Shown here: piece by piece, positions 9,607 through 25,607 of the stretch | How the letters are laid out: every line of letters begins with the position of its first letter | Numbering within the stretch: position 1 is the stretch's first letter | Source of the DNA: Carboxylicivirga sp. | GTDB taxonomy: Bacteria; Bacteroidota; Bacteroidia; Bacteroidales; Marinilabiliaceae | Assembly: GCA_025210475.1 (NCBI GenBank) | Contig: JAOARW010000039.1 | Coordinates: forward strand, 22,355-54,354 | DNA length: 32,000 nt | Reading direction: 5' to 3' | The notes under the pieces: generated by a model | The model's database searches: none | Told to the model about the DNA's origin: nothing | What the model saw: the letters and a program-made list of their open reading frames with translations, nothing else | Program-made: the position numbers and the translations under genes

Positions 9607-9638
9607 CTGAAGTATAAACCACTAACCAAACTTAACTA

Positions 9639-11084
9639 ATGTCAGAACTTATAGAAGATAGAGTCTTACAAAAAGCGGAAACCGTTTCGGAAATAAAGCC
9701 AAATATTATCACTGTATTTGAGTTATTGAGTTTAGGTGAAATTGATTTTCCGAACTACCAGCGTCCGTACAAATGGAGTGTTAAGCATGTGTCACAATTG
9801 ATTAACGATGTAATTACTTTCAAAGATAAACCTGCTTATCGCTTAGGAACTGTTGTAATTCATCAAGACAAAAGTGATACACTAAATGTAGTTGATGGTC
9901 AACAACGTACAGTTACGCTTCTCCTAGTTCTAAAAGCCATCATCAAAAGTTTCGATAGTAATCTAATTACTATCCACAATAAGAGCTTAATTAACGACCT
10001 TCATACTTTACAGGCCAAAATGCCACAGCCTAAGTTTACAAACCCTGTAAGCATTCGTAATATACAGCTCAATTATTCTGAAATAGAACGAATGATGGCT
10101 GTAATTGATGAAGAAATCATTCATTTTTTATTGCATAAATGCGAGGTCGTCAAGTTTGTTTTAACCGATGTGTCGGAGGCCTTTCAATTTTTTGATGCTC
10201 AGAATGCCCGTGGTAAAGATTTAGACCCACATGATTTATTAAAGGCCTTTCATTTGAGAGAATTTAGTGATTCAGAGAAAGAAGAACTGGACGCCTCTGT
10301 AGCAGCTTGGGAAGGTATGCAGACTAAAACTTTAGTAAGGCTGTTTGGTAGATACTTATATCGTATTAAAGGATGGCTAAAAGGTGATTCAGCCCGATAT
10401 TTTACAAAGAGTAAGGCTGACTTTTTTAAAGGAATCACATTGGACAAAATAGATAACTATCCGTTCACAAATGCCATGCGCATTACGCATTTCTATGTTG
10501 AAGGGTACAATCATTCCAATGATAGGAATATTGATTTATCAAAAATGAGTTATCCGTTCCAATTAGACCAGGCGGTTATAAATGGAAAACGTTTTTTTGA
10601 AATGACAGGCCATTATCAAAAGGTAATTGATAATTACACAGGTAACTTTATTGATACCTTAGAATTGAATAAGAAGGCCAAGGAGATAGTATATGCCATT
10701 AACAATTATGAGGGAAGAAATAGAGATGGTGATAAATATGTTCGTATGCTTTTTGATTGTGCTCTTATTTACTACTACGATAAGTTCGGAGGTATTGAAA
10801 TTTCAAGGATGATAGAAAAACTATTTATCTGGGCTTATAAATTAAGGTTACAACAACAGTCTGTATTTCTATCTACCGCTGATAATTATGTCTTAGCTAA
10901 TAATGTGTTTATTGCAATTAAAGAGGCTACACACCCTCAACAAGTGCTTAACTTCTATATTTCTCAGGTTGAAGAAATAAGGATTAACAAAAAGGACTCA
11001 TTGAAGTTTAAAGTCAATGAAGAAATTACCAAGAACAATTCGTTGATAAACATTTTCACAGACTTAAAGTATTATCATGGTTAA
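9639..11084 (+). CDS. DUF262 (ParB-like/GmrS-type) domain protein without a recognisable nuclease domain
   Basis: DUF262 signatures: DFPNYQRPYKWS, VVDGQQRTVTL and FFDAQNARGKDLDPHDLLKA. Overlaps the next gene by 8 nt. Confidence 0.85.
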   Translation: MSELIEDRVLQKAETVSEIKPNIITVFELLSLGEIDFPNYQRPYKWSVKHVSQLINDVITFKDKPAYRLGTVVIHQDKSDTLNVVDGQQRTVTLLLVLKAIIKSFDSNLITIHNKSLINDLHTLQAKMPQPKFTNPVSIRNIQLNYSEIERMMAVIDEEIIHFLLHKCEVVKFVLTDVSEAFQFFDAQNARGKDLDPHDLLKAFHLREFSDSEKEELDASVAAWEGMQTKTLVRLFGRYLYRIKGWLKGDSARYFTKSKADFFKGITLDKIDNYPFTNAMRITHFYVEGYNHSNDRNIDLSKMSYPFQLDQAVINGKRFFEMTGHYQKVIDNYTGNFIDTLELNKKAKEIVYAINNYEGRNRDGDKYVRMLFDCALIYYYDKFGGIEISRMIEKLFIWAYKLRLQQQSVFLSTADNYVLANNVFIAIKEATHPQQVLNFYISQVEEIRINKKDSLKFKVNEEITKNNSLINIFTDLKYYHG

Positions 11085-13881
11085 TAATGACGCAGTAATA
11101 GAATTAGATGTACGCACCCTACTTAGTGAAAGTGGTACTTATATAATTCCTGTTTATCAACGTAATTATGCTTGGGGTGAGGCTCAAATAAGGCAGTTAA
11201 TCAGAGATGTAATTGATTCTATTCCTAGCAACGGAGCTATGGATAAGAAATACTACATCGGAACGCTTATAGTAGATGAAAATACAACAAACGCTCATGA
11301 AATATATGAAACAATTGATGGACAGCAGAGGCTAACGACTCTCAATATTCTGGCAATGGTGCTTAAGAACCATCCTGAGTTTGCTGAAATAGACACAACT
11401 TGGTTTAATAAGTTAAATCTTGACTTCACAAATCGAGCACTATCGGCTAATGCTTTAAAGGATATTTTTAATGATTCCATTAACCCTAACCACGAGTATC
11501 ATAATTCAATAATTGATGCCTACAACCTATGTATTACCATACTTAAAAACGAATTAAAAGAAAGCAATGTAAGTTTAGAAAAGTTTACAAGCTACTTGTT
11601 TAATTATGTGAGTATTCTTCGAGTTAGTGTTCCTCCTCAAACCGATTTGAATCATTATTTTGAGATAATGAACAACAGAGGGGAGCAACTTGAGAAACAC
11701 GAAGTGCTGAAGGCAAAACTATTAGATGTTTTCAACCTTGTTAATGATGAAAAGCAGAAATCCATTTACAACCACCTTTTCCACCTGATTTGGGAAGCTT
11801 CTTCAAACATGGAAAAATATGTGCAGTATGGTTTTAAAGTAAAAGACAGACATGAATTGTTCGGTCATGAGTACTGGGATACGTTTTCTGCTGTTGATTT
11901 TGATGAGCTTACTGAATTGATTTCTATAGAATCTGATAGTGAAAAGTTAAACGAAACTGATAATGAACCAAGCGAATCATTGAGCATTGATGAAATTATT
12001 GAAAAAAGAAAAATAGAAGGGTTAACAGGTTCGAAGAAAGATGATAATCCTGACAGGTTTTATCCCATCATCAATTTTTCAAACTTCCTGCTTCATGTTC
12101 TTCGTATCCAAACAAAAGAAGATATTCCTCTTGATGATAAAAAGCTGATTAGTGTATTCGAGAATATACTTTCAAAAAAAAATGAAGAAGAAAGATTGCA
12201 ATTCACGAAGGACTTTGGGTACAACTTACTTAAAGCCAAATATCTATTTGATAAGTACATAATCAAACGAGATACTTCAACGCATCAGGAAGAGTGGAGT
12301 CTGCTTAAGATGAAGTGTTATAAGCGCAAAAAGGATACTTATAATGCCAACTACTTAAACTCGTTTGCTGATGAAAAACAGAATAGAAAACTGATTCAAC
12401 TACTTTCAATGTTTCACGTTTCTGTTCCAACTTTATCATACAAACATTGGTTAAATGCAGCATTAAATTTTGTTTTTACAAATCCTGAGGTAACAGCAGA
12501 AGTTTATGTAAGCTATTTAGAAGAAATGGCTAAACAGTTTGTTTACAATAGAATTATAGCTCAGAATCCGCAAGAATATTATCAGATGATTTACAATCCT
12601 GATAAAAATGCAGAATTAAAGTGGACTGATAATGAGAATACTATTGACTTACATAAATTGACCTTTGGAGCTATAACAAATAACCTGCTGTTTAATTATA
12701 CCGATTACTTGTTGTGGCGGAGAGAAGTTGAAAACGAGGATGGTGATTCGAAAATCATAAGTTTCAAATTTACTTCTCGTAGTTCTGTTGAGCATTATTT
12801 TCCTCAGAATCCACTGAATGAAGATGTTGAGAAGTTAGATAACAGACACCTGCATTCCTTTGGGAACTTGTGTTTAATCAGCCATGAGAAGAACTCAAAG
12901 CTAAATAATCACCTGCCACAATCAAAGAAAGACTACTATGGTAAATCAGCATCCATTGATAGTATAAAGCAATACCTAATGATGCAGGAAACAGTGAAGG
13001 ACTGGCATATTCAGGAAATTGAGAAACATGAAGATGAAATAATTGAATTACTCAAAGATAATTGTGCAACGGATTATTCATGGGAAGTAGCAAAGCCTTC
13101 TCTTGCCCGTATTTGGTTTAATAAATATAAAAGAGAAGACAAAGCCTTATTGGCACGAACCCTTATGTGCTTTGGACAAATTGATGAATATGTGGGATGG
13201 TCATGGGGCATGGGTAGATGGAGCTTTTATGAATGGGAAAGAATCGAAGCTGAAGAAGAGAATAATACGCTGTCTGAGTTTGAAAAGTATATAGAAGAAC
13301 ACAATCCTGAAACATTAAACGATATAATCGAGCAACAACTGCGTTCTAATACAGATATTAGAAAAGACTCCTATCGCTATGTATTTATAACGAGGCCACA
13401 ATTACTTAAGTATTGTGAACAAGGTAATTTTGGTTGGGGTGATGATGGAAAAAGAATACTTTTATTATCCAATAGTCGTGCAGATAAAGCTGCCTCATGT
13501 GATATGTATTGTTATACCTTAAAGCTTTTTCTTAAAGAGAAATATGATTGTAAAACAAACTGCAATCGAGAAAGGCTTAAAGTTCCCTTAATGGAGAAGG
13601 ATAATATTTTGACACTAAAGATTAAGGGTAATGAAACAGTGGCTTATTTGAGGATTTGGAATCATGAAGGTGCATTGTGTTATGACATTGACCCTCTCAA
13701 CCTTCATGGTAATTCTAAAATTATACGAAACTTAACCAACTCAGGATGGGGATACAACGACAGCAATAGATTGTACTATCAGGAAAAGACATATTTGTAT
13801 GAACTATCTGAGGATGTAGAAGATAATATTATAGAGGCCGAGAAGAACTTAATACAAATACTTTCGTATTTACAGGAATAA
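11077..13881 (+). CDS. GmrSD-like protein (N-terminal DUF262 plus a downstream DUF1524 His-Me finger nuclease domain); putative type IV (modification-dependent) restriction enzyme
   Basis: DUF262 signatures: IPVYQRNYAWGE, TIDGQQRLTTL and YFEIMNNRGEQLEKHEVLKA. DUF1524 signature: SSVEHYFPQNP...HSFGNLCLISHEKNSKLNN. Confidence 0.85.
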   Translation: MVNNDAVIELDVRTLLSESGTYIIPVYQRNYAWGEAQIRQLIRDVIDSIPSNGAMDKKYYIGTLIVDENTTNAHEIYETIDGQQRLTTLNILAMVLKNHPEFAEIDTTWFNKLNLDFTNRALSANALKDIFNDSINPNHEYHNSIIDAYNLCITILKNELKESNVSLEKFTSYLFNYVSILRVSVPPQTDLNHYFEIMNNRGEQLEKHEVLKAKLLDVFNLVNDEKQKSIYNHLFHLIWEASSNMEKYVQYGFKVKDRHELFGHEYWDTFSAVDFDELTELISIESDSEKLNETDNEPSESLSIDEIIEKRKIEGLTGSKKDDNPDRFYPIINFSNFLLHVLRIQTKEDIPLDDKKLISVFENILSKKNEEERLQFTKDFGYNLLKAKYLFDKYIIKRDTSTHQEEWSLLKMKCYKRKKDTYNANYLNSFADEKQNRKLIQLLSMFHVSVPTLSYKHWLNAALNFVFTNPEVTAEVYVSYLEEMAKQFVYNRIIAQNPQEYYQMIYNPDKNAELKWTDNENTIDLHKLTFGAITNNLLFNYTDYLLWRREVENEDGDSKIISFKFTSRSSVEHYFPQNPLNEDVEKLDNRHLHSFGNLCLISHEKNSKLNNHLPQSKKDYYGKSASIDSIKQYLMMQETVKDWHIQEIEKHEDEIIELLKDNCATDYSWEVAKPSLARIWFNKYKREDKALLARTLMCFGQIDEYVGWSWGMGRWSFYEWERIEAEEENNTLSEFEKYIEEHNPETLNDIIEQQLRSNTDIRKDSYRYVFITRPQLLKYCEQGNFGWGDDGKRILLLSNSRADKAASCDMYCYTLKLFLKEKYDCKTNCNRERLKVPLMEKDNILTLKIKGNETVAYLRIWNHEGALCYDIDPLNLHGNSKIIRNLTNSGWGYNDSNRLYYQEKTYLYELSEDVEDNIIEAEKNLIQILSYLQE

Positions 13882-13916
13882 CTTTTAATTAAACTATTAC
13901 CCTTAGCACAAACAAA

Positions 13917-16900
13917 ATGAATTATATAGGCAAACCTGAACGCTTCACACAAGACAGAGTAATCCGATTTTTTCAAGATGAATTAGACTATCGGTATCTT
14001 GGAAGTTGGGAGAATGAAGAGCGCAAACTCCCTATTGAAGAAGGCATATTGTACACTTTTCTGACAAAGAAACAAGGTTGTTCTGCCTATGTTGCCAATA
14101 AGGCTATATCTAAGCTTATAAATGCAGCTACCAATTTATCCAATGGATTATATGAAGCTAATAAAGAGGTTTATAGTCTTCTTCGATACGGAACTTCAAT
14201 TGCAGAAGAAGTTGGCGAACTGAAGGAAACGGTTCACTTTATCAATTGGTCAAACTATATACTTAATGACTTTGCAATAGCTGAAGAAGTTACTGTGAAG
14301 GGTAAAAACAACAAGCGTCCTGATGTAGTTATTTACGTAAATGGTATTGCCCTTGGTGTTATTGAGTTAAAGAAAAGTACAAAAGGTATTGAAGAAGGAA
14401 TTACTCAGAATTTGGATAATCAAAGTGATGAGTTTATTCCGAACTTTTTTACTTCTATGCAATTGGTGATGGCAGGGAATGATACTCAGGGCATTCGGTA
14501 CGGAACAATACAAACACCTGCTAAATATTACTTAAAATGGAAAGAAGATAGTAGTCAGGAATTTGATTACATTCTTGATAAACATATACTACAGCTTTGT
14601 AACAAAGAGCGTTTACTCGAATTAGTTTATGATTTCGTGATATTTGATGCAGGGACAAAAAAGCTATGTCGTCCGAATCAATTTTTCGGAATTAAAGCTG
14701 CACAAACAAATATTCTCACTCGTCAAGGTGGAATTTTATGGCACACTCAAGGGTCTGGGAAATCACTAACTATGGTTTGGCTGACCAAGTGGATTCAAGA
14801 AAATGTAAATGATAGCCGTGTGCTAATAATTACCGACCGAGAAGAATTAGACGAACAAATTGAAACACTTTTTATAGGTGTAGAGGAAAGTATTTACCGT
14901 ACAAAAAGCGGTAAAGATTTAATCAACACTCTCAACCATAAACGTCATCGTCTTATTGCTAGTTTGGTGCATAAGTTTGGCCGAACGAGTGAAGAAGGTG
15001 ATTTTGACAGCTATATCGATGAATTAAAAGCAAGTATTGGTACTGATTTCAAGGCGAAAGGAAACATCTTTGTATTTGTAGATGAATGTCATCGTACTCA
15101 ATCAGGGAAACTTCATGATGCAATGAAAAGCATTTTACCTGATGCGCTTTTTATTGGCTTTACAGGAACACCATTGCTTAAGAAAGATAAGCAAAAAAGT
15201 ATCGAAGTTTTCGGCCCTTATATTGGTAATCCATACAAGTTTGACGAAGCAGTTGAAGATGGTGTAGTGCTTGATTTACTCTACGAGGCTAGAGATGTAG
15301 AGCAATTTATTACCGACCAACAAAGCATTGATGATTGGTTTGATGCAGAAACGAAAGGCTTAACCGATGTGGCAAAAGTTGAGCTTAAGAGACGGTGGGG
15401 AACAATGCAGAAAGTACTGGGTTCCAAATCTCGTTTGGAAAAAATAGTTTTTGACATCATTAAGGATTTCAAGGTAAAACCTCGCTTGGCTAATGGAACA
15501 GGAAACGCAATGTTGGTTTCAGGGAGTGTGTATCAAGCTTGCAAATATTATGAACTCTTTCAGAACTCAGGATTTAAAGAGTGTGCCATCATCACAAGTT
15601 ATGAGCCACATATTGCAGACATAAAGGGAGAAACAACAGGAGAAGGAACTGTAACCGAGAAAGCATTAAAGTATGAAATATACCAAAAGATGCTTAACGG
15701 CAAATCTACGGACGATTTTGAAACCGAGGTAAAAGCTTTATTTATTCACGAGCCACATAAAATGAAGCTTTTGATTGTTGTAGATAAACTATTAACAGGA
15801 TTTGATGCACCGTCAGCTACCTATTTATACATCGATAAAAAGATGCAAGACCATGGCTTGTTTCAGGCTTTATGTCGGGTAAATCGTGTAGATACTGAAG
15901 ATAAAGATTATGGTTTTATCATTGACTATAAGGACTTGTTTCATAGCATAAAAGATTCAATTAGTGATTATACTTCTAATGTATTTGATGCCTACGACAA
16001 GGAAGATGTATCAGGCCTTTTAAAAGATAGGTTTGATGTTAGCAAAGAAAGGCTTGAAACAGCATTGGAAGCAATTAGAGCCATATGCGAACCGGCACAT
16101 CCAAAAACAGAACCTGGTTATATTCGCTACTTCTGTGGTAATACCGAGAATAAAGAAGATTTACAACGAACGGAAGAATTTCGATTGAATCTTTACAAAG
16201 CAACCTCTTCCTTGATTCGTGCATTTGCCAACATTGCCAACGAAATGATTAAGGCAGGATATTCTCAGAATGAAGCCAATAAGATAAAAGCAGAAGTGGA
16301 TTTTTATGCGGACTTGCGTGATACCATTAAACAAGCCAGTGGTGACGGTTTAAATTTTAAACTTTATGAACCAGGCATGCGTCAGTTAATGGACATGTAC
16401 TTAGATGCTAAGAGTAGTAAAAAGATTTCTGATTTTGAAAATCAGACTTTAGTTGACTTAATCATCAATGTAAGTGAGCCAGAAAGTGACTATAAAAAGA
16501 AAAAATCAAAGGAAGCAGTTGCAGAAACTATCGAAAACAATGTACGAAAGGTAATTATTGAAGAATCGCCTGCTAATCCAAAGTATTACGAGAAAATGTC
16601 AGTTCTGTTGGACGAACTAATTAAACAACGGAAAGATGAATCGATAAGCTATCAGGAATATCTGATGAAAATTAAGGAGCTGGCAGAACAAGTAGTTCAA
16701 CCAACAGCTAAAACTACGTATCCTGAAAATTTGGATTCTTCCGCTAAAAGAGCATTGTATGACAACCTAGAACGTAATGAAGTATTGGCTTTAGCTTTGG
16801 ATAGTGTAATTCAGACTCAGGCGCAAGATGGTTGGCGTTCACATCCTTTAAAACTTAAAAAGATACGTATCGCCATCAATGGTTTATTAAATGATGATGA

Positions 16901-16949
16901 TAAAACAGACGCAATACTACAAATCGTAAAAGCACAGGATGAATATTAA
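13917..16949 (+). CDS. hsdR: Type I restriction-modification system, restriction (helicase-nuclease) subunit R
   Basis: N-terminal PD-(D/E)xK (RPDVVIYVNGIALGVIELKKS). SF2 helicase motifs TQGSGKSLT (I), FVDECHRTQSG (II), GFTGTPL (III) and QALCRVNR (VI). Confidence 0.95.
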   Translation: MNYIGKPERFTQDRVIRFFQDELDYRYLGSWENEERKLPIEEGILYTFLTKKQGCSAYVANKAISKLINAATNLSNGLYEANKEVYSLLRYGTSIAEEVGELKETVHFINWSNYILNDFAIAEEVTVKGKNNKRPDVVIYVNGIALGVIELKKSTKGIEEGITQNLDNQSDEFIPNFFTSMQLVMAGNDTQGIRYGTIQTPAKYYLKWKEDSSQEFDYILDKHILQLCNKERLLELVYDFVIFDAGTKKLCRPNQFFGIKAAQTNILTRQGGILWHTQGSGKSLTMVWLTKWIQENVNDSRVLIITDREELDEQIETLFIGVEESIYRTKSGKDLINTLNHKRHRLIASLVHKFGRTSEEGDFDSYIDELKASIGTDFKAKGNIFVFVDECHRTQSGKLHDAMKSILPDALFIGFTGTPLLKKDKQKSIEVFGPYIGNPYKFDEAVEDGVVLDLLYEARDVEQFITDQQSIDDWFDAETKGLTDVAKVELKRRWGTMQKVLGSKSRLEKIVFDIIKDFKVKPRLANGTGNAMLVSGSVYQACKYYELFQNSGFKECAIITSYEPHIADIKGETTGEGTVTEKALKYEIYQKMLNGKSTDDFETEVKALFIHEPHKMKLLIVVDKLLTGFDAPSATYLYIDKKMQDHGLFQALCRVNRVDTEDKDYGFIIDYKDLFHSIKDSISDYTSNVFDAYDKEDVSGLLKDRFDVSKERLETALEAIRAICEPAHPKTEPGYIRYFCGNTENKEDLQRTEEFRLNLYKATSSLIRAFANIANEMIKAGYSQNEANKIKAEVDFYADLRDTIKQASGDGLNFKLYEPGMRQLMDMYLDAKSSKKISDFENQTLVDLIINVSEPESDYKKKKSKEAVAETIENNVRKVIIEESPANPKYYEKMSVLLDELIKQRKDESISYQEYLMKIKELAEQVVQPTAKTTYPENLDSSAKRALYDNLERNEVLALALDSVIQTQAQDGWRSHPLKLKKIRIAINGLLNDDDKTDAILQIVKAQDEY

Positions 16950-17664
16950 AGATGAAAATTTTACGATTGGCAGTGTTCAAATTGAGGTGGTAAGAAAAAA
17001 CATCAAGAATATGCACTTGGCCGTATATCCTCCTCATGGACGAGTGCGTTTGGCTGCCCCCGAACAAACCGATATAGAAGTGTTAAGGCTTTTTGCCATA
17101 TCAAAGTTATCTTGGTTAAAGAAGAAGATAAAAAGTTTTGAGAATCAGGCGAGGGAAACGGCACGTGAATATGTATCAGGAGAAAGCCATTATTACCAAG
17201 GGAGACGATACTTATTGGAAGTTAAGCACCATAAAGGCTATAATAAAATTGAATTACAAAATCGAAAAATTGTTTTTTATACAAAGGAGTCCGCTACAAC
17301 CGAAACACGTTCTAAGGTATTTAAAGAATGGTATCGAAGAGAACTGAAAAAGCAAATACCAACCTTAATAGATAAATGGCAAAAGGTAATTGGCGTTGAA
17401 GCTGATGAATGGGGAGTAAAGCAAATGCTTACCAAGTGGGGAGCTTGTAATATTGAGGCTAAACGTATATGGCTCAATCTTGAATTGGCAAAAAAGCCAA
17501 CTATTTGTTTAGAATACATTATCGTACACGAGCTCATTCATTTAATAGAGCGAAACCATAATGACAATTTCATTGCTCTAATGGATAAGTTTATGCCTAA
17601 GTGGCGATTACACCGAGATGAATTAAACAGTCTGCCAATCGTGCATAACGATTGGGGGTATTAA
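16939..17664 (+). CDS. DUF45/YgjP-like (M48-related) zinc metallohydrolase
   Basis: HELIHLIERNHNDNF (HExxH followed by a downstream His), typical of DUF45/COG1451. The start overlaps the 3' end of hsdR by 11 nt. Confidence 0.85.
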   Translation: MNIKDENFTIGSVQIEVVRKNIKNMHLAVYPPHGRVRLAAPEQTDIEVLRLFAISKLSWLKKKIKSFENQARETAREYVSGESHYYQGRRYLLEVKHHKGYNKIELQNRKIVFYTKESATTETRSKVFKEWYRRELKKQIPTLIDKWQKVIGVEADEWGVKQMLTKWGACNIEAKRIWLNLELAKKPTICLEYIIVHELIHLIERNHNDNFIALMDKFMPKWRLHRDELNSLPIVHNDWGY

Positions 17665-17682
17665 AAATATTAAATAACCATT

Positions 17683-19425
17683 ATGCACCTAGTATACGTT
17701 TATGTAGAAAACTTTGAAAATAGAGTTAAGAATAAAGAGTATAATCTTAGTTCGAAATACACCATTCATTTTAATAAGGAAACTAAGTATTTAGAAGTGA
17801 AGGAAAATGAGGAGTATATCGATAACTTCTGGCCTGACAATATCTATGATATAAAAGCGATTGTAGGGGAGAATGGGTGTGGTAAATCTACTCTTTTAGA
17901 TATATTATTTTCAAATTCATTTGAACACAGGTCATTCCCTAACTGGGATATACCTATTTTTATTTTCGAAGGCGAGGGAGGTATAGTTGTTCATAAGAGA
18001 AAAGGTTATGATGTTAATATAGACCCTTATATTACAGAATCTCCAATTGACTTTTCTACTAATCATTTTAGGTATAATGAAAATATAAACTCAACAACAA
18101 ATGTTGTTTATTATTCAAACTTATGGGACCAAGAAAACTTCAATAGTGATAAAGAGCATATATTTAATATCTCAACTTCTCAATTAGTAAGTCTTAACCA
18201 GTCAATTACATATAAAGCATTTGAGTTTCAAAGGCAAATTGAGTATGTAACTAATAACAGAACTAATACAACATCTTATATTAAAAATATTCCAGAATAT
18301 ATAAGTGTAAAAATCACAACAGACCTATATGAGATTCTTAAATACAGTACTGATGACGTTACTTTTGATGACATTTTAGGAACATTTATTGATACATTGG
18401 ATGACTTTAAAGAAGACAATGTTACTTCTATATTGAGAAAAAGTTTCTTTTCCGTTCTAGCAAAAGCATACTCTTTGGATATAATGCCATATAAGAATGA
18501 GGAAATGACTCCTATATGGGAATATTTAACAAGTAATTTATCGGAAGAAGTTTCGCTTGTCGATATTATTAGTGAAATTAAAGAAATAGAGAAAAAAATT
18601 AGTTATAAGGATAAAGATAATAGTGTTTCCAATGCAATTGAAAGATTTAGTTCTTTTGAAGTTAAGATGAAAGATGCTGTAGTTGAAATCCTCAATTCAT
18701 CTATGAGCGTTAAGTTCAATGAAGATTTTAATGATATATATGAAGAATACTTAAAATCTATCCCAACTTACCCGTATTTAGAGTTTAGTTGGCGAGAAAT
18801 GAGTAGCGGAGAAAAAGGATTATTAGCTTTATTATCAAGATTCCAATATTTAAAGAAGCTCCCAGCATTTAAGAAAGCAAATCCGAACATAGAAGGACAA
18901 TTGTCAAAAGACCTGATTATAATAATGGATGAAGTTGAGTTGTATTATCACCCAAACTGGCAACGTAAGTTGATTAAAATATTAGTTAATGAAATTGCAC
19001 CTATGTTTAACGGAGCAAAGATTCAATTTATTGTTGCCTCACATTCACCCTTTTTAATATCTGACCTACCAAGAAATAATGTTATTTTTTTAACAAATCA
19101 AGAGGATGGTTTAGCTACGGTGGTAGACCCAACTGGACTAGACCATACTTTTGGAGCAAACATTCATGAATTATTGGCTAATCCATTTTTTATGAAGAGT
19201 ACCTTAGGTGATTTTTCAAAAGAAGTCATTAGTGACCTCATTAAATACACTAAAGGGGAGAAGCAAGAAAGAATTAAAGAAGATGCAATTGCACAAAAGC
19301 TAATTGATGTAATTGGAGAGCCAGTTATTAAAAATAAAATTCAGGATATGCTCAATAAAAGAAGACATAAGACTGAGTTAATTAAGTTTTATAAGGAGCA
19401 AATTATCAAACTAGAAAAGGATTAG
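17683..19425 (+). CDS. ABC/SMC-like AAA ATPase (AAA_15/21-type), PtuA-like (Septu-like system component)
   Basis: Walker A GENGCGKST; signature-like MSSGEKGLLALL; Walker B DLIIIMDEVELYYHP; H-loop VASHSP. The next gene starts 1 nt after its stop. Confidence 0.7.
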   Translation: MHLVYVYVENFENRVKNKEYNLSSKYTIHFNKETKYLEVKENEEYIDNFWPDNIYDIKAIVGENGCGKSTLLDILFSNSFEHRSFPNWDIPIFIFEGEGGIVVHKRKGYDVNIDPYITESPIDFSTNHFRYNENINSTTNVVYYSNLWDQENFNSDKEHIFNISTSQLVSLNQSITYKAFEFQRQIEYVTNNRTNTTSYIKNIPEYISVKITTDLYEILKYSTDDVTFDDILGTFIDTLDDFKEDNVTSILRKSFFSVLAKAYSLDIMPYKNEEMTPIWEYLTSNLSEEVSLVDIISEIKEIEKKISYKDKDNSVSNAIERFSSFEVKMKDAVVEILNSSMSVKFNEDFNDIYEEYLKSIPTYPYLEFSWREMSSGEKGLLALLSRFQYLKKLPAFKKANPNIEGQLSKDLIIIMDEVELYYHPNWQRKLIKILVNEIAPMFNGAKIQFIVASHSPFLISDLPRNNVIFLTNQEDGLATVVDPTGLDHTFGANIHELLANPFFMKSTLGDFSKEVISDLIKYTKGEKQERIKEDAIAQKLIDVIGEPVIKNKIQDMLNKRRHKTELIKFYKEQIIKLEKD

Positions 19426-19426
19426 C

Positions 19427-20425
19427 ATGATTAAAGTTGAAATACCTGAAAATATCATACAACTACATAAAGATAGTTTGCTTCCAAAGGTTCTGAGACG
19501 ACTAAGGCGGAAAATAGAAGAGTGTGACAATGAGGAAACTAAAGCATTTTATGAGCATGTGTTAGATGAGGAGAATGACAATCAAATACTTGAAGATATT
19601 TTAATTGGAAAGCCTCATGAAATTAGGGAGTTAATAAGTTATATTAAAAATAATTTTCAAAGTATTTTTGAACCATTCATGGAGAAAGATTTCAAAAAAG
19701 ACCTGGAATCAATTTTTAATTACAAATCCTTCAGGAATGAAAAAAATGGCTGGGGAGCTTATAAGTTAACCAAGCTATTAGACATAAATACGTGCCCTTA
19801 TTGCAATAGGCAATACACTCATACCTATTATAGTGATACAAAAAAAACAAGGCCTGAATTAGACCATTATTATCCTCAATATAAATATCCTTTTATAGGA
19901 TTGTCATTGTACAATTTAATTCCTTCTTGTCATATATGTAATTCAAACTTAAAGCATAAAGATGATTTTTACAATGATTCACATGTGCATCCATATGAGG
20001 AAGGTTTTGAAGAAGATGCTGTTTTCCGAACTGATTTTGTTAAAGATGAAGATGGACTTTACGATATTGATTTAGTAGATAAAAATAGAACCATCGATGA
20101 CTTTAAATTGCACTTATTGATTGATGAGGAATCAGTGCTAAGAGATAAAATTATCAATAGTAACAATACCTTTTTAATAGAGGAACTTTATCAAAAACAT
20201 AAGGATTATGTTCTTGAGATAATTAGGAAATCTGTTATTTATAATGATACGAAGATAGATGAGTTATTATCCGATTTTGGAAATCTGTTTGATAGTAAAT
20301 CTCAATTGATAGAAACCTTAATAGGCAATTATATCCACAATAAAGATTTAAAAAAGAGGGTGCTATCCAAATTGACAAAGGATATTTGGGATGAGTACGG
20401 TATGAAAGAAATATGGAAGCAATAA
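19427..20425 (+). CDS. HNH endonuclease-domain protein, PtuB-like (Septu-like system component) with a C-terminal extension
   Basis: CPYCNRQ...ELDHYYPQ...YNLIPSCHICNSNLKH, i.e. two Cys pairs plus an H-N-H arrangement. Immediately follows the ATPase. Confidence 0.65.
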   Translation: MIKVEIPENIIQLHKDSLLPKVLRRLRRKIEECDNEETKAFYEHVLDEENDNQILEDILIGKPHEIRELISYIKNNFQSIFEPFMEKDFKKDLESIFNYKSFRNEKNGWGAYKLTKLLDINTCPYCNRQYTHTYYSDTKKTRPELDHYYPQYKYPFIGLSLYNLIPSCHICNSNLKHKDDFYNDSHVHPYEEGFEEDAVFRTDFVKDEDGLYDIDLVDKNRTIDDFKLHLLIDEESVLRDKIINSNNTFLIEELYQKHKDYVLEIIRKSVIYNDTKIDELLSDFGNLFDSKSQLIETLIGNYIHNKDLKKRVLSKLTKDIWDEYGMKEIWKQ

Positions 20426-20964
20426 GCTGTTTTAATAAAATCAATTTTTGGGAATATGCATATTCTAACCTGATTGATAACAGGAATAGGGCAGCATTGG
20501 CTGAGTATATTGTGGCGGAAGCGATGCAAGCAACTAATACACCTGAAACAAGCTGGGAATCATACGATATATTAAGTCCTGAGGGAATTAAGATAGAGGT
20601 AAAGTGTTCCGGGTTTGTTCAGAGTTGGAAACAGAATAAGTTATCCTCTCCATCCTTTGATATTAAAAAGAAATACGGATGGAAGGGTGATACTAATGAA
20701 TGGGACGGAATATTGGATAGGCAAGCAGATGTTTATGTTTTTTGCCTACATACCGAAACAGACAAAGATAATTTGAAGCCTCTTGCGTCTGACAGTTGGA
20801 GATTTTATGTTGTCGCTACCTCTGTCATAAATGAAAAACTACCCGAACACAAGTCAGTTGGAATTTCAACAATTGAAAGTACTCTTAAAGTAAATCGAAT
20901 TAAATACGAAGACTTAAAGCAAGAGATTTTAAACGCATACAATCAGAAAGACAAGGTATCGTAG
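20413..20964 (+). CDS. Hypothetical protein with a candidate PD-(D/E)xK nuclease motif, overlapping the HNH gene
   Basis: YDILSPEGIKIEVKCS fits D-x(n)-E-x-K. The start overlaps the previous gene by 13 nt. The 3' end overlaps the convergent recombinase gene by 22 nt. Confidence 0.4.
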   Translation: MEAISCFNKINFWEYAYSNLIDNRNRAALAEYIVAEAMQATNTPETSWESYDILSPEGIKIEVKCSGFVQSWKQNKLSSPSFDIKKKYGWKGDTNEWDGILDRQADVYVFCLHTETDKDNLKPLASDSWRFYVVATSVINEKLPEHKSVGISTIESTLKVNRIKYEDLKQEILNAYNQKDKVS

Positions 20965-21584
20965 GTTTCCAAAAGCTCATCTTTTGCAATTCCGAGATAG
21001 GTTCTGGTTATCTGAGTTGAAGAATGATTAAACAATTGGCTTAGCTTAACAAGAGCTAATTCAGCCTTAGTGCCAGATTGGTCAAATATAGCTCTCCCAA
21101 AAATTTTACGCATTGAATGTGTCGAAAAATTCTTAATATCAATGTTATAGAGCTCACGAATTTCTTTAAAGATAATGTTAATCCGCTGAATTGAATAGAC
21201 GGTATTCTTTTGGGATGTAAAAATAAAATCATCTGTAGTTCTGGGTTCGATGCCTTTGTGACAGTCTAGAATATGACGCTGTAATTGTAGGTTAATTTTT
21301 ATTTCACGAGTTTTTCCAGTCTTCTTTTCAATAAGAATAAGCTTGTCTTTATTTAATATATCATCCCATTTAAGGCTTAGTAGGTCAGAAATTCGCAGTC
21401 CCCAAAATGTGCCTAGGGATATTAGTAGCGAAATTTTATAATTACCATCATCATATAATCGCCTAATCAGATTGAGGTTTTTATCCCATGGTAGATAGTC
21501 GGCTGTGGTATTCGAATATTTAAGACTCATAATATTCACTTTTAATAGTTTATAAATAAAACTGAAACACTCTTTCAAACTCAT
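20943..21584 (-). CDS. Short tyrosine-type site-specific recombinase (catalytic domain only; alternative start at 21530)
   Basis: Catalytic pattern R (WGLRISDLLSL), HxxR (THSMRKIF), H (NHSS) and Y (TRTYLG). No N-terminal core-binding (SAM-like) domain fits in 195-213 aa. Confidence 0.8.
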   Translation of the reverse strand: MSLKECFSFIYKLLKVNIMSLKYSNTTADYLPWDKNLNLIRRLYDDGNYKISLLISLGTFWGLRISDLLSLKWDDILNKDKLILIEKKTGKTREIKINLQLQRHILDCHKGIEPRTTDDFIFTSQKNTVYSIQRINIIFKEIRELYNIDIKNFSTHSMRKIFGRAIFDQSGTKAELALVKLSQLFNHSSTQITRTYLGIAKDELLETYDTLSF

Positions 21585-21779: not shown

Positions 21780-22022
21780 ATGAGTGAAAAAAATATATCA
21801 AAAGAAAAGTTTGAAAAAATTGGTAGCCACCTCCGGATTTTGCGAAAACAATTCTATAAATGTGGATACATCGAGTTCGCACAAAAAGTAGGAATCGACA
21901 AAAAGACATATTATAATATGGAGAAACCTAAAAACGATTATTCTATTGGCAACCTAATTAAGGTCCTAGAGATGTATGACGATATGAATCTAAGTACATT
22001 TTTTAGAGAGGCTGAATTGTAG
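21780..22022 (+). CDS. XRE-family HTH transcriptional regulator (start reassigned to MSEKN)
   Basis: IGSHLRILRKQFYKCGYIEFAQKVGIDKKTYYNMEKPKN has an HTH_3-like pattern. The track start at 21750 lies inside the palindrome/-7 box region, so the ATG at 21780 is preferred. Confidence 0.7.
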   Translation: MSEKNISKEKFEKIGSHLRILRKQFYKCGYIEFAQKVGIDKKTYYNMEKPKNDYSIGNLIKVLEMYDDMNLSTFFREAEL

Positions 22023-22056
22023 ATTTATTGTTAACCATTAACCTTAATAGAAAATT

Positions 22057-22926
22057 ATGAATGGAGTAATCGCTCAAGTATTATCAATGCTTTCATTTGG
22101 TTTTAGTAATGCATTATGGAGAAGGCCAGTTGGAAAAATGGTAGTTGAAGAAGCTATAATCTATCGTACCATTTTTAGCCTGTCATTTTTTGTTATTCTA
22201 CTATTTACTATTGATGAGAAGTCAACGATAACGATTGAAAGTACATGGGGATTAAACATCTGGTTATTTGCATTCATTATCAGTTGTATTAGTTACTTTG
22301 GACTATTCTTTTATAATAAAGCATTACAATACAGCACAACGGGATTGGTTGTTATTGTAGTAACTACCTCTTTTTTATTCGGGCAATTCACCTCTTTTGT
22401 ACTATTAGGTGAAGTTCCAACAAAAGGATATATCTTACCATTTTTACTTTTTATTATTGCGATTGTTTTATCCGATTATCCATCCATATACAAGTTGAAG
22501 CTATCTAAAGGAGTAGGGTATGGGTTGTTGGCATCAATGTTTTGGGGTATAACATTACCACTATTAAGTATCCCTTCTAAGCAAATAGGGTATATTAAAA
22601 CTGGGTTAGTACTTGAGATTTCGGTAATGTTAATGAGCTTTTTGAGCTTGCATATATATCACAAAAAAAGAATGAGTTATAGAGTTTTTAAAACAGATAT
22701 TCGTTTTTTCATTCTTCTTGGTTTATTAGCAGGTTGTGGCGTGTTGTTTAATAATTTATCCTATACTAAGATTTCTGTTTATATAGCTAGTAGTATTTCT
22801 TCAAGTACACATCTAATATCCATAATTGCAGCTTGGATAATGTTTAAGGAGAAACTTAAACCTTATCAGTATCTAGCAGCTATTGTTTCGGTGCTAGCAA
22901 TTTTTGTTTTATTGCAGGTCACCTAA
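22057..22926 (+). CDS. EamA/DMT-superfamily transporter
   Basis: 289 aa and almost entirely hydrophobic, with about 10 predicted TM segments in two halves. This is typical of a duplicated EamA architecture. Confidence 0.75.
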   Translation: MNGVIAQVLSMLSFGFSNALWRRPVGKMVVEEAIIYRTIFSLSFFVILLFTIDEKSTITIESTWGLNIWLFAFIISCISYFGLFFYNKALQYSTTGLVVIVVTTSFLFGQFTSFVLLGEVPTKGYILPFLLFIIAIVLSDYPSIYKLKLSKGVGYGLLASMFWGITLPLLSIPSKQIGYIKTGLVLEISVMLMSFLSLHIYHKKRMSYRVFKTDIRFFILLGLLAGCGVLFNNLSYTKISVYIASSISSSTHLISIIAAWIMFKEKLKPYQYLAAIVSVLAIFVLLQVT

Positions 22927-25392
22927 AATGAATCCGCAATTCTCAAACATCAGTTTACCTTGTTGCTCTAGTTTTTCATTGCCAAATGGATTCTTAAAAT
23001 AAATATACGCTGTCAATAAATCATATTTGCAATATTTGCTTAACCTGATGGCCATATTGAAATAATCTTTAGCTTGTTGTTCATCTCCTCGTTGAAGAAA
23101 TAATTCTGATGCATATAAGTTAATAAGGACAATATACTGGTAGGAACTGTAATGGCTGGCATTACTTACAGCAAAAGAGGATAATTTGCTTAAATCTTCA
23201 GGATTCAATTTATGCCCTGTTTTGAATTTTGCATAAACCAATAATGAGTTAATTACATCATAATGAAAACTTTCTGCATAGTAGAAAAAATCATCAGGGT
23301 GGTTTAAATTTTCAACTATATCGATTACTGTATTTCCATAATCAATCGCCAGCTTATAATTGCAGGTTAACATTAAAGCATAAACTATAGAAACATCAAA
23401 TAGAAATTCTTTTTGATACCCAATGTGATAATTGGCATAAGCAATCTCTCTCACTCTTAATAATTCATCAAGTGTAATATTTCTTTTCACCTTTTCGCAA
23501 ATGCTTGAGTATAAAATAGAATAAGCAGTTTTTCTTCCTACAGGCCATGGAAAAGTATTTTCGTTAAAATCTAATTTCTCAAGATTAGAATAGTGTTTTA
23601 GGGCTTCCTTTTTATTTAGAGTTAGTAACGAATAATATAGGTGCAAAGATGTTGTGAATAATCTTGCTTCATTGTCGTATTTATATTTGCTGTAGGTTAT
23701 GAGTTGATTATTAAATCCGATTACTAAATTATTAACGTCTACAAAAAGTTCGAATAAAAACTTTTGTGCCTTTGGTATCGATACTAAAGTGTTAATAACG
23801 GTTTGTTGGAAACTACTATGCTTTCTGAGGCAATTACCAATTACAATTGAAAGGTTAATTGTGCTAAAAATATCATCACTCAAAGTGAAAAAGTGACAAA
23901 CATTTTCTAAGTTCTCACTTTCGTAGGCAATGTAAAATAGATGCTCAAATACATTTATTTTAAATTCAAGATTTTCATATTCTTCATCAAGATTGTCCAA
24001 TAATTCAGTATCCAAACCATTATTTATTTTTATAAAATAATAAGCACATAAATAATAGTAGAAATTCACGTGTTTAAAACCTATATGGTAGGTTGGTATA
24101 TGCCCATAAGTTTTTTCGATAAATTCATAAAGAACTCCGTCAGAAAGTAATTCGTTGTATGCTAAGTGGTAATTGCCATTTTGTTTTAAATGTATTGGGT
24201 AATGTTTTTTAATTAGGTTTTTTGGAATAGAAAAGTTGTTATTTTTAGTAATTAGCGCTTCTAAAAGAGCTTCGATAATGTCAATTTTCTCCTCTGCACA
24301 AAATGAATGATAAATATATTTATCAACTAGCTGTTTATATAAATTATGAACCGTTTCTTCGCTTCCCTTTTTATCCGCAAAATTATTACTCTTATAAATT
24401 GCACTATTTATAGGAGTTTGCAATAACGAAATAATCTCAGGATTAGTGATTTGACACCAAATTGCATCAAAAGTGCTAGAACTATCTAATTTTTGCAGTA
24501 CATCAATTACTTCCGCTTGAGAGAGTAAAGGAACATTTATTTGATTTTGCAAAGCTAGTTGACTCTCACTACTCTTAATGCTTAAATGTTCTTGGAATAA
24601 AGGCTGAATATACCTTTGATAGGTAATGTCGCGCACTGAAAAAATAACTTTCAGCCATTTGTATGCTTCATAATTTGCCATAAAATCGATGAACCATAAG
24701 ATGAAGCGTTTTAGTTTCTCAATATTTATGGAAAGCTCATCAATACCATCAACCATGATTATGAACTTACCCTCTGCTAGTTTATGCTCATTAAGTAATT
24801 GAATTGAGTTTGAACTATTCTTTGAAAAATCAATAAAGTTTGAATGCTGGCCATTGTTTTGAAAAGTGTTTTCAAAGACCAAAGCATTCGTAAATAAAAG
24901 TATATCGCTATTATCAACACTTGTGCTTTCGCTCCATTTGCCTAAAAGAGTCGATTTTCCATAACCACCAGGGGCTGTGATTACCGTGAATATTTGTTCT
25001 GAATCTAAAAACTCATTCAATTTTTCCTCTACTGTCAAGCGGTGTATTGATTTAGAATAGTCAGACAGTGATTTTTTCTTAATACTATTTAAACAGTACT
25101 TGGTATATGAGTTCGCCTCTTTTTGAATGTCTTTCCAAAGTGTCTCAATATTTATGACATGCTCTTTGTGAATATCAAACTGGCAATAAATACATAAGGT
25201 ATCCGAATTGTATGGTGAGAGCTTAGAAGAAGATGGGAGTAAACCGAAGAAGCGTCTTAAAGTAGCACTGCTAATACGCCTTTTCGTTTCATCTAATATT
25301 GCTTCCTCCAATATTCGACATTGTTTGGCGGTAGTTACTTTCTCTCCAAATTTTTCTTCAACTGCATAACGCAGCTCTTTTATATTGACCAT
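22909..25392 (-). CDS. NACHT/STAND-like P-loop NTPase with an N-terminal HTH-like segment and a C-terminal helical-repeat (TPR-like) region
   Basis: Walker A ITAPGGYGKSTLLGKW. Walker B of the NACHT style, FIIMVDGIDELS. About 450 aa of helical sequence follow. The N-terminus TTAKQCRILEEAILDETKRRISSATLRRFFG resembles a DNA-binding helix pair. Confidence 0.65.
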   Translation of the reverse strand: MVNIKELRYAVEEKFGEKVTTAKQCRILEEAILDETKRRISSATLRRFFGLLPSSSKLSPYNSDTLCIYCQFDIHKEHVINIETLWKDIQKEANSYTKYCLNSIKKKSLSDYSKSIHRLTVEEKLNEFLDSEQIFTVITAPGGYGKSTLLGKWSESTSVDNSDILLFTNALVFENTFQNNGQHSNFIDFSKNSSNSIQLLNEHKLAEGKFIIMVDGIDELSINIEKLKRFILWFIDFMANYEAYKWLKVIFSVRDITYQRYIQPLFQEHLSIKSSESQLALQNQINVPLLSQAEVIDVLQKLDSSSTFDAIWCQITNPEIISLLQTPINSAIYKSNNFADKKGSEETVHNLYKQLVDKYIYHSFCAEEKIDIIEALLEALITKNNNFSIPKNLIKKHYPIHLKQNGNYHLAYNELLSDGVLYEFIEKTYGHIPTYHIGFKHVNFYYYLCAYYFIKINNGLDTELLDNLDEEYENLEFKINVFEHLFYIAYESENLENVCHFFTLSDDIFSTINLSIVIGNCLRKHSSFQQTVINTLVSIPKAQKFLFELFVDVNNLVIGFNNQLITYSKYKYDNEARLFTTSLHLYYSLLTLNKKEALKHYSNLEKLDFNENTFPWPVGRKTAYSILYSSICEKVKRNITLDELLRVREIAYANYHIGYQKEFLFDVSIVYALMLTCNYKLAIDYGNTVIDIVENLNHPDDFFYYAESFHYDVINSLLVYAKFKTGHKLNPEDLSKLSSFAVSNASHYSSYQYIVLINLYASELFLQRGDEQQAKDYFNMAIRLSKYCKYDLLTAYIYFKNPFGNEKLEQQGKLMFENCGFILGDLQ

Positions 25393-25451
25393 TGCTTCTG
25401 AACGATTCTTCGTTGATTAAACATATACCAACGGAAATTAAGAACATGAAA

Positions 25452-25482
25452 ATTTTCGTTATCTCTGTCTTTTAACGAAAAT
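25452..25482. promoter_or_regulatory. 10-bp-arm inverted repeat in the divergent intergenic region
   Basis: ATTTTCGTTA (25452-25461) and TAACGAAAAT (25473-25482) with an 11-nt spacer. A third TAACGAAAT copy lies at 25539-25547. Confidence 0.35.
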
Positions 25483-25520
25483 AATCAAAGCCTCTAGAAT
25501 TATCACCCTTCGTGACAAAA

Positions 25521-25538
25521 TTGACAAGTTTGACAAGT
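25521..25538. repeat. Tandem direct repeat TTGACAAGT x2, preceded by a degenerate copy
   Basis: TTGACAAGT at 25521-25529 and again at 25530-25538. GTGACAAAA at 25512-25520 is a 6/9 match. The repeat lies between the STAND gene and the LRR gene. Confidence 0.4.
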
Positions 25539-25607
25539 AACGAAATGATAAGATAGGTTGTAAAACGGATATTATAAAAATAACCACTTAATGCTTTGAT
25601 TTTTGCT

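Follow-up and report, generated by a model that had tools for sequence, protein, structure and literature searches.

A probable two-gene Septu-type module of the PDC-M62 subfamily and an adjoining putative PD-(D/E)xK nuclease gene in a Carboxylicivirga defence island

Septu is an anti-phage system of two genes, encoding an ATPase (PtuA) and an HNH nuclease (PtuB), in which the helical C-terminal domain of PtuB docks onto PtuA and PtuAB nicks DNA (PMC12819146); Septu is also reported to cleave tRNA-Tyr (PMC13096335). PtuAB also serves as the effector of type I-A retrons (Ec78/Eco7), and PtuAB-containing retrons are triggered by phage nucleases that cut single-stranded DNA (PMC12640716). A related candidate system of PADLOC, PDC-M62, is unpublished, and no direct experimental validation of it was found in the literature; in a published survey, loci called as PDC-M62 were usually called as Septu too (PMC11811056). 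Among phage nucleases, T4 endonuclease IV (DenB) is reported to be a dC-specific single-stranded DNA endonuclease with toxicity to Escherichia coli (PMC1635256; PMC12916289).

Here, we analysed a stretch of 32,000 nucleotides from Carboxylicivirga sp. (contig JAOARW010000039.1, positions 22,355 to 54,354; hereafter designated the window), in which an ATPase gene, an HNH gene, and a gene for a 183-residue protein (hereafter P3) follow one another closely. The initial annotation had read these genes as a possible three-component variant of Septu. We found that positions 17683-20425 probably constitute a two-gene Septu-type module of the PDC-M62 subfamily, with P3 being a separate, independently travelling nuclease.

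Gene layout of the island

The genes concerned are as follows.

5179-7617, + strand: hsdM (N6_Mtase and HsdM_N domains; full-length match to MTase_I)
7611-8873, + strand: hsdS (Methylase_S)
8870-9532, + strand: uncharacterised open reading frame of 220 aa
9639-13881, + strand: two GmrSD/DUF262-type genes, type IV restriction-like, between hsdS and hsdR
13917-16949, + strand: hsdR (full-length match to REase_I)
16939-17664, + strand: YgjP-like metallopeptidase (YgjP-like, E 1e-59), directly upstream of the ATPase-HNH pair
17683-19425, + strand: PtuA-like ATPase of the ABC/SMC type (PDC-M62A), 580 aa
19427-20425, + strand: PtuB-like HNH protein (PDC-M62B), 332 aa
20413-20964, + strand: P3, predicted PD-(D/E)xK endonuclease (PF26887, Phage_T4_End_IV, DenB-like), 183 aa
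20943-21584, - strand: short tyrosine recombinase, 213 aa (Pfam Phage_integrase, E 7e-18)

The last three genes on the + strand lie exactly where the initial annotation had placed them (17683-19425, 19427-20425, and 20413-20964), a single nucleotide separating the ATPase stop from the HNH start and the first 13 nt of P3 overlapping the end of the HNH gene. The motifs cited for the ATPase (GENGCGKST, SSGEK, DEVE, and SHSP) and for the HNH protein (CPYCN, DHYYP, and NLIPSCHICNSNLKH) can all be read in the translations, and the 183-aa open reading frame is a real gene, having 172 homologues as well as 3,926 cluster representatives in a large library. The position of the module at the tail of a type I restriction-modification (R-M) operon likewise holds, with HsdM beginning at 5179, HsdS at 7611, and HsdR at 13917. 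This R-M system is complete, HsdM, HsdS, and HsdR all being present by Pfam and full-length PADLOC matches. One of the two GmrSD-type genes carries the Pfam domains GmrSD_N and DUF7834 and the other GmrSD_N and GmrSD_C, and PADLOC matches to HEC-06, Orf5, and SspE-like profiles were obtained for these genes. In this Carboxylicivirga lineage, the type I R-M genes, the GmrSD-type genes, and the YgjP-like gene form a composite island that has the pair at its 3' end. The recombinase gene is convergent with P3 and overlaps its 3' end by 22 nt.

Throughout the array at 5179-20964, nearly all genes are joined by overlaps or very short gaps, those of clearly independent systems included, so that the 13-nt overlap between the HNH and P3 genes represents the local norm. 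This overlap leaves no intergenic room for a separate P3 promoter, and P3 and the pair probably share one long transcript. A scan for sigma-70 promoters and terminators, which is ill-suited to Bacteroidota promoters, gave no more sites than shuffled sequence, and the common transcript is thus an inference. The repeat search returned short imperfect matches only, with neither att sites nor hsdS shufflon repeats, and searches of the window found no tRNA gene, no Rfam family or retron ncRNA, and no retron reverse transcriptase. The GC content is 0.34-0.38 for the R-M genes versus 0.29-0.30 for the ATPase-HNH pair. The locus is an ordinary defence island.

Family assignment of the ATPase-HNH pair

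Both proteins of the pair matched the PDC-M62 profiles over their full lengths, the ATPase aligning with PDC-M62A (E 1.5e-97) from residue 1 to residue 579, against positions 1-618 of the 633 in the profile, and the HNH protein with PDC-M62B (E 1.9e-93) through residues 1-327 on positions 1-326 of 328. The nearest characterised relatives are the PtuA and PtuB profiles, the solved PtuA (8ee4), and the TIGR02646 (9n69) chains. The PADLOC PtuA profiles matched the ATPase in its C-terminal half only (E 4e-25), and PtuB matched over the HNH core (E 4e-8); in addition, PtuA 8ee4 matched the ATPase at E 3e-9, the ATPases of retrons Ec83 and Ec78 were also matched, and the HNH profile matched PDB chain 9n69_F (TIGR02646) at E 7e-4. 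The ATPase, encoded beside the HNH nuclease, further matched AAA_21, AAA_15, and SMC_N of Pfam and contains the Walker A, signature, Walker B, and H-loop motifs. The matches to the PtuA and PtuB profiles and to the solved PtuA support the initial annotation in calling these two genes a Septu-like pair, the full-length matches to PDC-M62A and PDC-M62B being much better.

With respect to PDC-M62, nothing structural differs: the system comprises two genes, the ATPase gene preceding the HNH gene with almost no gap, as is the case for most relatives, and the copy in the window ends a type I R-M/GmrSD array, a placement seen in few of them. The pair shares its architecture and domain types with Septu, including the PtuAB effector of the type I-A retrons, whereas the sequence likeness extends only over the HNH core and, in the ATPase, over the C-terminal half. 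The curated NCBIfam cut-offs were not reached: NF041760, the PtuA equivalog model of the Ec78 retron type, scored 72.3 bits against a 500-bit cut-off and covered the ATPase only in its C-terminal half, and TIGR02646 gave the HNH protein 17.7 bits against a cut-off of 52.15 bits. Both proteins are also larger than the Septu profiles (580 aa versus about 420-545 positions for the ATPase, and 332 aa versus about 216-250 for the HNH protein), and, unlike the type I-A retrons, the window contains no retron.

The HNH protein consists of a helical N-domain, a Cys4 HNH core (about residues 121-181), and a helical C-terminal domain. In an alignment of 46 homologues, C123, C126, D146, H147, N163, C168, C171, and N172 were invariant, and conserved columns of the C-terminal region extended to K315; an AF2 model (pLDDT 92.4) placed helices across 239-329. 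A region C-terminal to the HNH core, estimated in the initial annotation at about 130 aa, is indeed present but measures about 150 aa (residues 182-332). The initial annotation did not recognise this region as part of canonical Septu, but it is not exceptional: it is conserved across the family, and a helical C-terminal domain is known in canonical PtuB (PMC12819146). Presumably, it corresponds to the PtuA-docking domain of PtuB. When the complete HNH model was compared with the PDB by Foldseek, no significant match was returned, PtuB included; the proposed correspondence is therefore based on the conservation within the family, the predicted secondary structure, and published work. By analogy with PtuAB, the ATPase would oligomerise and hold the HNH nuclease through this helical C-terminal domain, and infection would free the nuclease activity, leading to DNA nicking or tRNA cleavage and to the abortion of phage growth.

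Fold and relatives of P3

A precomputed match to PF26887 (Phage_T4_End_IV) is available for the protein identical to P3 (P0001) and for nearly all of its homologues. Among 41 sequences of the family, D52, E62, and K64 were invariant, as were E31 and Q70. The catalytic motif noticed in the initial annotation is therefore confirmed, but its spacing is D52-x9-E62-x-K64 and not D-x12-E-x-K. The AF2 model (pLDDT 91.9) gave NhoI, Eco15I, PvuII, and EcoRV as top Foldseek matches (best E 3e-5; TM-scores 0.45-0.55), while the P3 alignment profile matched nothing among PDB sequences. The earlier description of P3 as a PD-(D/E)xK-like protein agrees with the invariant triad, the confident model, and the restriction-enzyme folds, and, judged by predicted fold and conserved triad, P3 is a genuine PD-(D/E)xK nuclease. 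The best fold matches, that is, the modification-dependent NhoI and Eco15I of the BisI family (PDB 8q5n, 8rpx, and 8q5m) and the PvuII/EcoRV-type enzymes, are small stand-alone PD-(D/E)xK nucleases with no partner methyltransferase, like P3; the sequence identity to P3 is only 14-18%, and the TM-scores are moderate.

The direct relation of P3 to T4 DenB is remote. An hhalign comparison of the two aligned only the catalytic core, with a probability of 22.5% (E 9e-4), PHROG 1360 matched P3 at E 0.0026, and Foldseek related P3 to the endonuclease IV of a T4-like phage at E 2.8e-3. The core of P3, AE[YF]xVA...W-D...G-[IL]-[KR]-[IV]-E-V-K, aligns with DenB, and the two proteins are of similar length (183 aa for P3 and 185 aa for T4 DenB). 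P3 differs in being chromosomal and bacterial, and it has thousands of bacterial homologues although DenB is lethal in E. coli. The PF26887 family is large and common to phages and bacteria, with no fixed neighbour gene; 192 relatives were found in viral contigs, and the family is also present in Faecalibacterium phage FP_Brigit. Some longer homologues carry NUDIX, HIT, or DUF6508 as fusion partners, but these show no consistency and could be artefacts of gene calling. In our reading, P3 is a separate entity that belongs to the T4 endonuclease IV (DenB) family, is a metal-dependent PD-(D/E)xK endonuclease, and most likely acts alone. As a speculation suggested by its fold neighbours and by the preference of DenB for unmodified dC, it might read the modification state of cytosine.

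Neighbourhood of the pair and of P3

The linkage was surveyed from both sides, each scan contributing its 80 best matches out of more than 550, a depth at which rare three-gene arrangements could be missed. On the HNH side, 86 loci with HNH relatives were collected, of which 66 had enough sequence for the upstream-gene test and 63 had at least 700 nt downstream; on the P3 side, there were 160 loci (80 genomic and 80 viral). Among these best matches, an ATPase gene adjoined the HNH gene upstream in 61 of the 66 testable loci and was the -1 gene in 72 of the 86. No gene family recurred in third place after the HNH gene among the 86 loci, and a P3 homologue was present in only two (L081 and L082), the HNH proteins of which are 88% identical to that of the window; the best 80 of more than 550 metagenome matches contained none. 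Conversely, a PDC-M62-type pair occurred in one of the 160 P3 loci, these being the top 80 of over 550 matches in either scan. In this locus (L002, from a second Marinilabiliales genome), about 1.1 kb separates a divergent PDC-M62 pair from the P3 homologue downstream, and a further defence gene, PDC-S18, lies between them.

The two close relatives, L081 and L082, keep the arrangement of the window at 87.5% nucleotide identity, with the 13-nt overlap and the same strand, and only in them is the recombinase adjoining P3 retained. In L083, from the same genus (HNH 61% identical), the order GmrSD-HsdR-YgjP-ATPase-HNH is followed by unrelated genes and no P3, and in L084-L086 (HNH 50% identical) the pair comes after an MmeI-type enzyme and is followed by AbiV. 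Homology between the window and L083 stops at 20394, 19 nt ahead of the P3 start, and the GC content, 0.294-0.298 in the pair, steps at the HNH/P3 junction from 0.294 to the 0.364 of P3. The neighbours of P3 relatives are mixed (UzuA, HEC-05/GmrSD, methyltransferases, gyrase, ligase, and others); defence genes account for about 15 of 78 immediate neighbours, 7 of them from one syntenic block, and in Marinilabiliales P3 adjoins UzuA, PDC-S18, or the PDC-M62 pair. Among the loci surveyed, P3 is not a conserved partner of the ATPase-HNH pair, and the R-M-tail position of the pair is specific to the lineage of the window. Two general rules were also considered and rejected: a mobile cassette of P3 and the recombinase, for which a relative of the window's recombinase occurred with P3 in one of 80 genomic loci (best 80 of more than 550 matches) and was not adjacent to it; and R-M dependence of the pair, for which HsdR and YgjP relatives flanked the HNH gene in L083 alone among the 86 loci.

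The initial annotation had made its three-component variant depend on conserved linkage between P3 and the pair, and the variant is not supported because such linkage is absent in both directions (2 of 86 HNH loci and 1 of 160 P3 loci, the latter non-adjacent). A narrower form, in which the DenB-like P3 was recruited within this lineage to serve the pair as accessory effector or sensor, its translation being coupled to that of the HNH gene, could draw on the overlap and shared strand kept in L081 and L082, since an overlap that leaves no promoter room and persists at 87.5% nucleotide identity allows a lineage-specific link. It could also draw on the nearby P3 homologue in L002 and on the triggering of PtuAB-containing retrons by single-stranded DNA-cutting phage nucleases (PMC12640716). 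We nevertheless regard it as very unlikely: co-occurrence does not extend beyond close relatives among the best matches surveyed, L083 has the pair without P3, an independent gene (PDC-S18) intervenes in L002, GC content and synteny both break at the HNH/P3 junction, overlaps are usual between unrelated genes of the array, and the window contains no retron reverse transcriptase or ncRNA. The pair itself might be viewed as auxiliary to the type I R-M enzyme and not as an autonomous defence, as the name of TIGR04435 (restriction system-associated AAA family ATPase) would imply. This model matches the C-terminus of the ATPase at E 1e-19, and the pair follows HsdR-YgjP in both the window and L083 and an MmeI-type enzyme in L084; however, the match amounts to 70.5 bits, far under the 300-bit cut-off, the flanking HsdR and YgjP are confined to L083 among the HNH loci, the GC content of the pair departs from that of the R-M genes, and many plasmids carry relatives (53 records), all of which makes such dependence hardly probable.

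For P3, a selfish or phage-derived origin with no role in host defence, either as a homing-type nuclease or as a remnant of an integrative element that included the recombinase, is consistent with the abundance of the family in viral contigs, the naming of the Pfam family for a host-DNA-degrading nuclease of T4, the housekeeping genes among its neighbours, the adjoining tyrosine recombinase, and the coincidence of the synteny break with a gene boundary. This origin seems unlikely, if less so than the two readings above, given that neither att-like repeats nor a tRNA flanks the segment, that the recombinase is so seldom found with P3, that defence genes recur among its immediate neighbours, and that P3 looks like defence-island cargo where it lies beside UzuA, PDC-S18, or the PDC-M62 pair in Marinilabiliales. 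We tentatively suggest, at similarly low confidence, that the bacterial PF26887 proteins, including P3, could be an unrecognised family of stand-alone defence nucleases that read the modification state of cytosine, resembling type IV restriction, and that hitch onto the 3' ends of other defence operons; carried on the transcript of the pair, P3 might then complement it against phages with modified DNA.

Collectively, the two-gene Septu-type module with an independently travelling P3 remains the reading we favour, and it carries the lesson that closely overlapping genes within a defence island do not argue for a system of several components. On this reading, the R-M island contains one further pair of the Septu type (PDC-M62), which is ordinary. 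The feature of interest is the P3 family, with its thousands of solitary bacterial and phage homologues, an intact catalytic triad, and no fixed partner; it takes its name from T4 DenB, which is lethal to E. coli. If the family consists of modification-sensing defence or counter-defence nucleases, a new single-gene system would be added, and this would bear on how retron and PtuAB defences sense DenB-like activities.

Septu-type assignment of the ATPase–HNH pair

The genes from HsdM to P3 (the 183-aa ORF following the HNH gene) form one long same-strand array, beyond which a recombinase gene runs convergently:

5179 (+), HsdM
7611 (+), HsdS
8870–9532 (+), 220-aa protein, member of the restriction–modification (R-M) array, 4-nt overlap with the hsdS stop codon
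9639 and 11077 (+), two GmrSD/DUF262 proteins (GmrSD_N+DUF7834; GmrSD_N+GmrSD_C)
13917 (+), HsdR
16939 (+), YgjP-like peptidase
17683–19425 (+), ATPase, 580 aa
19427–20425 (+), HNH protein, 332 aa, starting 1 nt past the ATPase stop
20413–20964 (+), P3, 183 aa, 13-nt overlap with the HNH gene
20943–21584 (−), short tyrosine recombinase, 213 aa, 22-nt 3' overlap with P3
21750–22022 (+), 90-aa ORF, divergent from the recombinase
22909–25392 (−), 827-aa P-loop protein ('APGGYGKST')

Translation of the window placed the ATPase, HNH and P3 ORFs exactly where the initial annotation had them and contained the motifs quoted for them, the spacing in P3 being D52-x9-E62-x-K64 instead of D-x12-E-x-K. In PADLOC-DB profile searches, the ATPase matched PDC-M62A (residues 1–579; E 1.5e-97) and the HNH protein matched PDC-M62B (residues 1–327, 328-position profile; E 1.9e-93), both over the full length, while alignment to the PtuA profiles was limited to the ATPase's C-terminal half (E 4e-25) and alignment to the PtuB profile to the HNH core (E 4e-8). 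Matches to the NCBIfam PtuA and TIGR02646 models were far under their cut-offs, and the Pfam domains of the ATPase were AAA_21, AAA_15, and SMC_N. The closest solved structures by sequence were Septu PtuA (8ee4) and the retron Ec83/Ec78 PtuA ATPases for the ATPase, and a TIGR02646 HNH protein (9n69) for its partner. In a survey of the Bacillus cereus group, in which PDC systems are described as unpublished candidates, PADLOC calls of PDC-M62 fell mostly on loci also called Septu, accounting for 203 of 244 Septu duplicates at the same locus (PMC11811056). Because of these profile matches, nearest structures, and overlapping calls, the pair is assigned by sequence to a Septu-type subfamily already catalogued, which bears out its Septu-like label.

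The initial annotation had also not recognised a C-terminal extension of the HNH protein as part of canonical Septu. A region past the HNH core is indeed present, although it spans about 150 aa rather than 130. It lies within the coverage of the PDC-M62B profile, contains invariant or near-invariant columns among 46 homologues (including F249, Y255, H258, D260, K315, and D319), and is all-helical at residues 239–329 in an AF2 model (pLDDT 92.4). In canonical PtuB, too, the C-terminal domain is helical; together with the C-terminal extensions of a PtuA dimer it builds a nine-helix bundle (PMC12819146). Profile coverage, conservation, the helical model, and the PtuB counterpart thus make the extension an expected feature rather than an anomaly, most likely an ATPase-docking domain. 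A whole-chain Foldseek search with the HNH model returned neither PtuB nor any other match.

Domain composition, conserved catalytic residues, and a conserved two-gene unit are established for the pair, and relatives of the HNH protein occur on 53 plasmids. By analogy with PtuAB, an ABC ATPase oligomer would hold the HNH nuclease through the helical C-terminal domain of the latter, and infection would unleash DNA nicking and/or tRNA-Tyr cleavage, aborting phage growth (PMC12819146; PMC13096335).

Genomic setting of the pair and of P3

The three genes had been proposed to constitute a three-component Septu variant. The HNH protein has 452 homologues (E ≤ 1e-10), and 86 loci were surveyed; the ATPase gene lay directly upstream of the HNH gene in 61 of the 66 loci with room for it (−1 gene in 72 of 86), and no other gene family recurred beside the HNH gene. 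P3-profile matches near the HNH gene were confined to two close relatives of the window (L081 and L082), whose HNH proteins are 88% identical to that of the window, and were found in none of 80 metagenome HNH loci. A Carboxylicivirga MAG locus (L083; HNH 61% identical) has the same GmrSD–HsdR–YgjP–ATPase–HNH array, followed by unrelated 782-aa and 337-aa proteins in place of P3; nucleotide homology with the window ends at 20394, 19 nt ahead of the P3 start codon. At 50% identity, an HNH relative is preceded by an MmeI-type enzyme and followed by AbiV.

The survey from the P3 side led to the same picture. Scanning species-representative genomes gave at least 534 P3 relatives in many bacterial phyla and archaea; among the best 80 of these loci (8-kb flanks), ATPase and HNH relatives were found by BLAST and profile only in Saccharicrinis (L002), where PDC-S18, an independent candidate defence gene, sits between the pair and P3. 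The pair was near P3 in none of the 80 viral loci examined of 192 further relatives on IMG/VR contigs. No neighbour family recurred in more than 10 of 78 P3 loci. Immediate same-strand neighbours varied (GmrSD/HEC-05, ResIII, methyltransferases, UzuA, PDC-S70, HmaC), the seven GmrSD/HEC-05 cases all belonging to one syntenic Clostridia block, and housekeeping genes (gyrase, DNA ligase, enoyl-CoA hydratase) also occurred next to P3.

Nor is the 13-nt HNH/P3 overlap special in this array. Nearly all junctions in 5179–20964 overlap or have gaps of at most 35 nt (−7, −4, −8, +35, −11, +18, +1, and −13 nt), and such tight junctions also join clearly independent systems. The GC content is 29.4–29.8% for the pair and 36.4% for P3. 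The initial annotation had named gene-neighbourhood analysis as a check and a lack of conserved linkage as grounds for dropping its proposal; with no conserved P3–pair linkage from either side, the L083 array without P3, the differing GC, and an overlap that is the array norm, the three-component proposal is not upheld.

The R-M setting is not typical of the pair, HsdR and YgjP relatives flanking it only in L083 among the 86 loci. Within the array, the pair is the low-GC outlier (0.29–0.30; R-M genes 0.34–0.38, P3 0.36), suggesting that it was acquired separately from its neighbours. The GmrSD/DUF262 genes (9639–13881) make up a type IV-like module between hsdS and hsdR; in L083, too, a GmrSD gene lies directly upstream of hsdR. 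Neither the 220-aa nor the 827-aa protein had a Pfam or PADLOC match. Conservation of the recombinase and 90-aa ORF beside P3 is limited to L081 and L082. These otherwise colinear loci lack the ~6.7 kb at 21978–28691 (EamA transporter, 827-aa P-loop protein, LRR/T9SS-sorted protein). No hsdS inversion repeats were detected in the window by repeat search; nor were att-like repeats, tRNA genes, or Rfam families, and hence no retron is evident there.

The Saccharicrinis MAG locus (L002, 2781–9687) is a one-strand defence island comprising the PDC-M62 pair, PDC-S18, the P3 homologue, DUF6946, and a GIY-YIG-like gene; its divergent pair consists of a 982-aa ATPase with a long N-terminal extension and a 391-aa HNH protein with helix-hairpin-helix motifs. 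In Carboxylicivirga sp. (L001, 7109–8546), 88 nt separate a P3 homologue from the Uzume gene upstream of it (UzuA, E 5e-63), the third distinct defence neighbour of P3 in Marinilabiliales. The P3 family is common to phages and bacterial chromosomes: Faecalibacterium phage FP_Brigit carries a relative (MG711465, 1865–2398), and many viral relatives lie 1–2 kb from the end of 50–70 kb contigs.

P3 as a DenB-like nuclease

A word-indexed search gave 172 P3 homologues, and a library of 1.84 billion proteins contained 3,926 cluster representatives at E ≤ 1e-3 (1,028 at E ≤ 1e-30); an identical 183-aa protein is recorded in a Carboxylicivirga sp. MAG (Bacteroidota). Pfam PF26887 (Phage_T4_End_IV) is assigned to nearly all homologues. 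Residues E31, D52, E62, K64, and Q70 are invariant among 41 aligned homologues. The top PDB fold neighbours of the AF2 model (pLDDT 91.9, pTM 0.88) are the PD-(D/E)xK enzymes NhoI and Eco15I (E 3e-5, TM 0.45–0.55), followed by PvuII and EcoRV. The invariant D52/E62/K64 and these neighbours confirm P3 as PD-(D/E)xK-like. Three direct comparisons agree in pointing weakly to T4 DenB: PHROG 1360, 'DenB-like DNA endonuclease IV' (E 0.0026); hhalign with T4 DenB (E 9e-4), placing the core AEYIVA...W-D...GIKIEVK on AEFFVAD...W-D...GLRVEVK; and Foldseek with a T4-like phage endonuclease IV (E 2.8e-3).

P3 is predicted to act as a Mg-dependent endonuclease through D52, E62, and K64, and is probably read off the array transcript as its last gene. 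Many PD-(D/E)xK restriction enzymes work as dimers, and the P3 family probably does likewise, as judged from two tandem P3-family genes in L036 (7350–8501) and a 381-aa homologue with two P3 domains (P0241). The enzymes closest to P3 in fold are modification-dependent, and no conserved methyltransferase partner was found among the P3-locus neighbours examined. T4 DenB, an enzyme lethal to E. coli, cleaves single-stranded DNA on the 5' side of unmodified dC (PMC1635256; PMC12916289). As the most economical, still speculative guess, P3 may be a solitary nuclease reading cytosine modification. The locus overall is an ordinary composite defence island in which the Septu-type pair is of an already known kind, and what interest it retains comes from the family of P3, the uncharacterised DenB-like proteins of bacteria.
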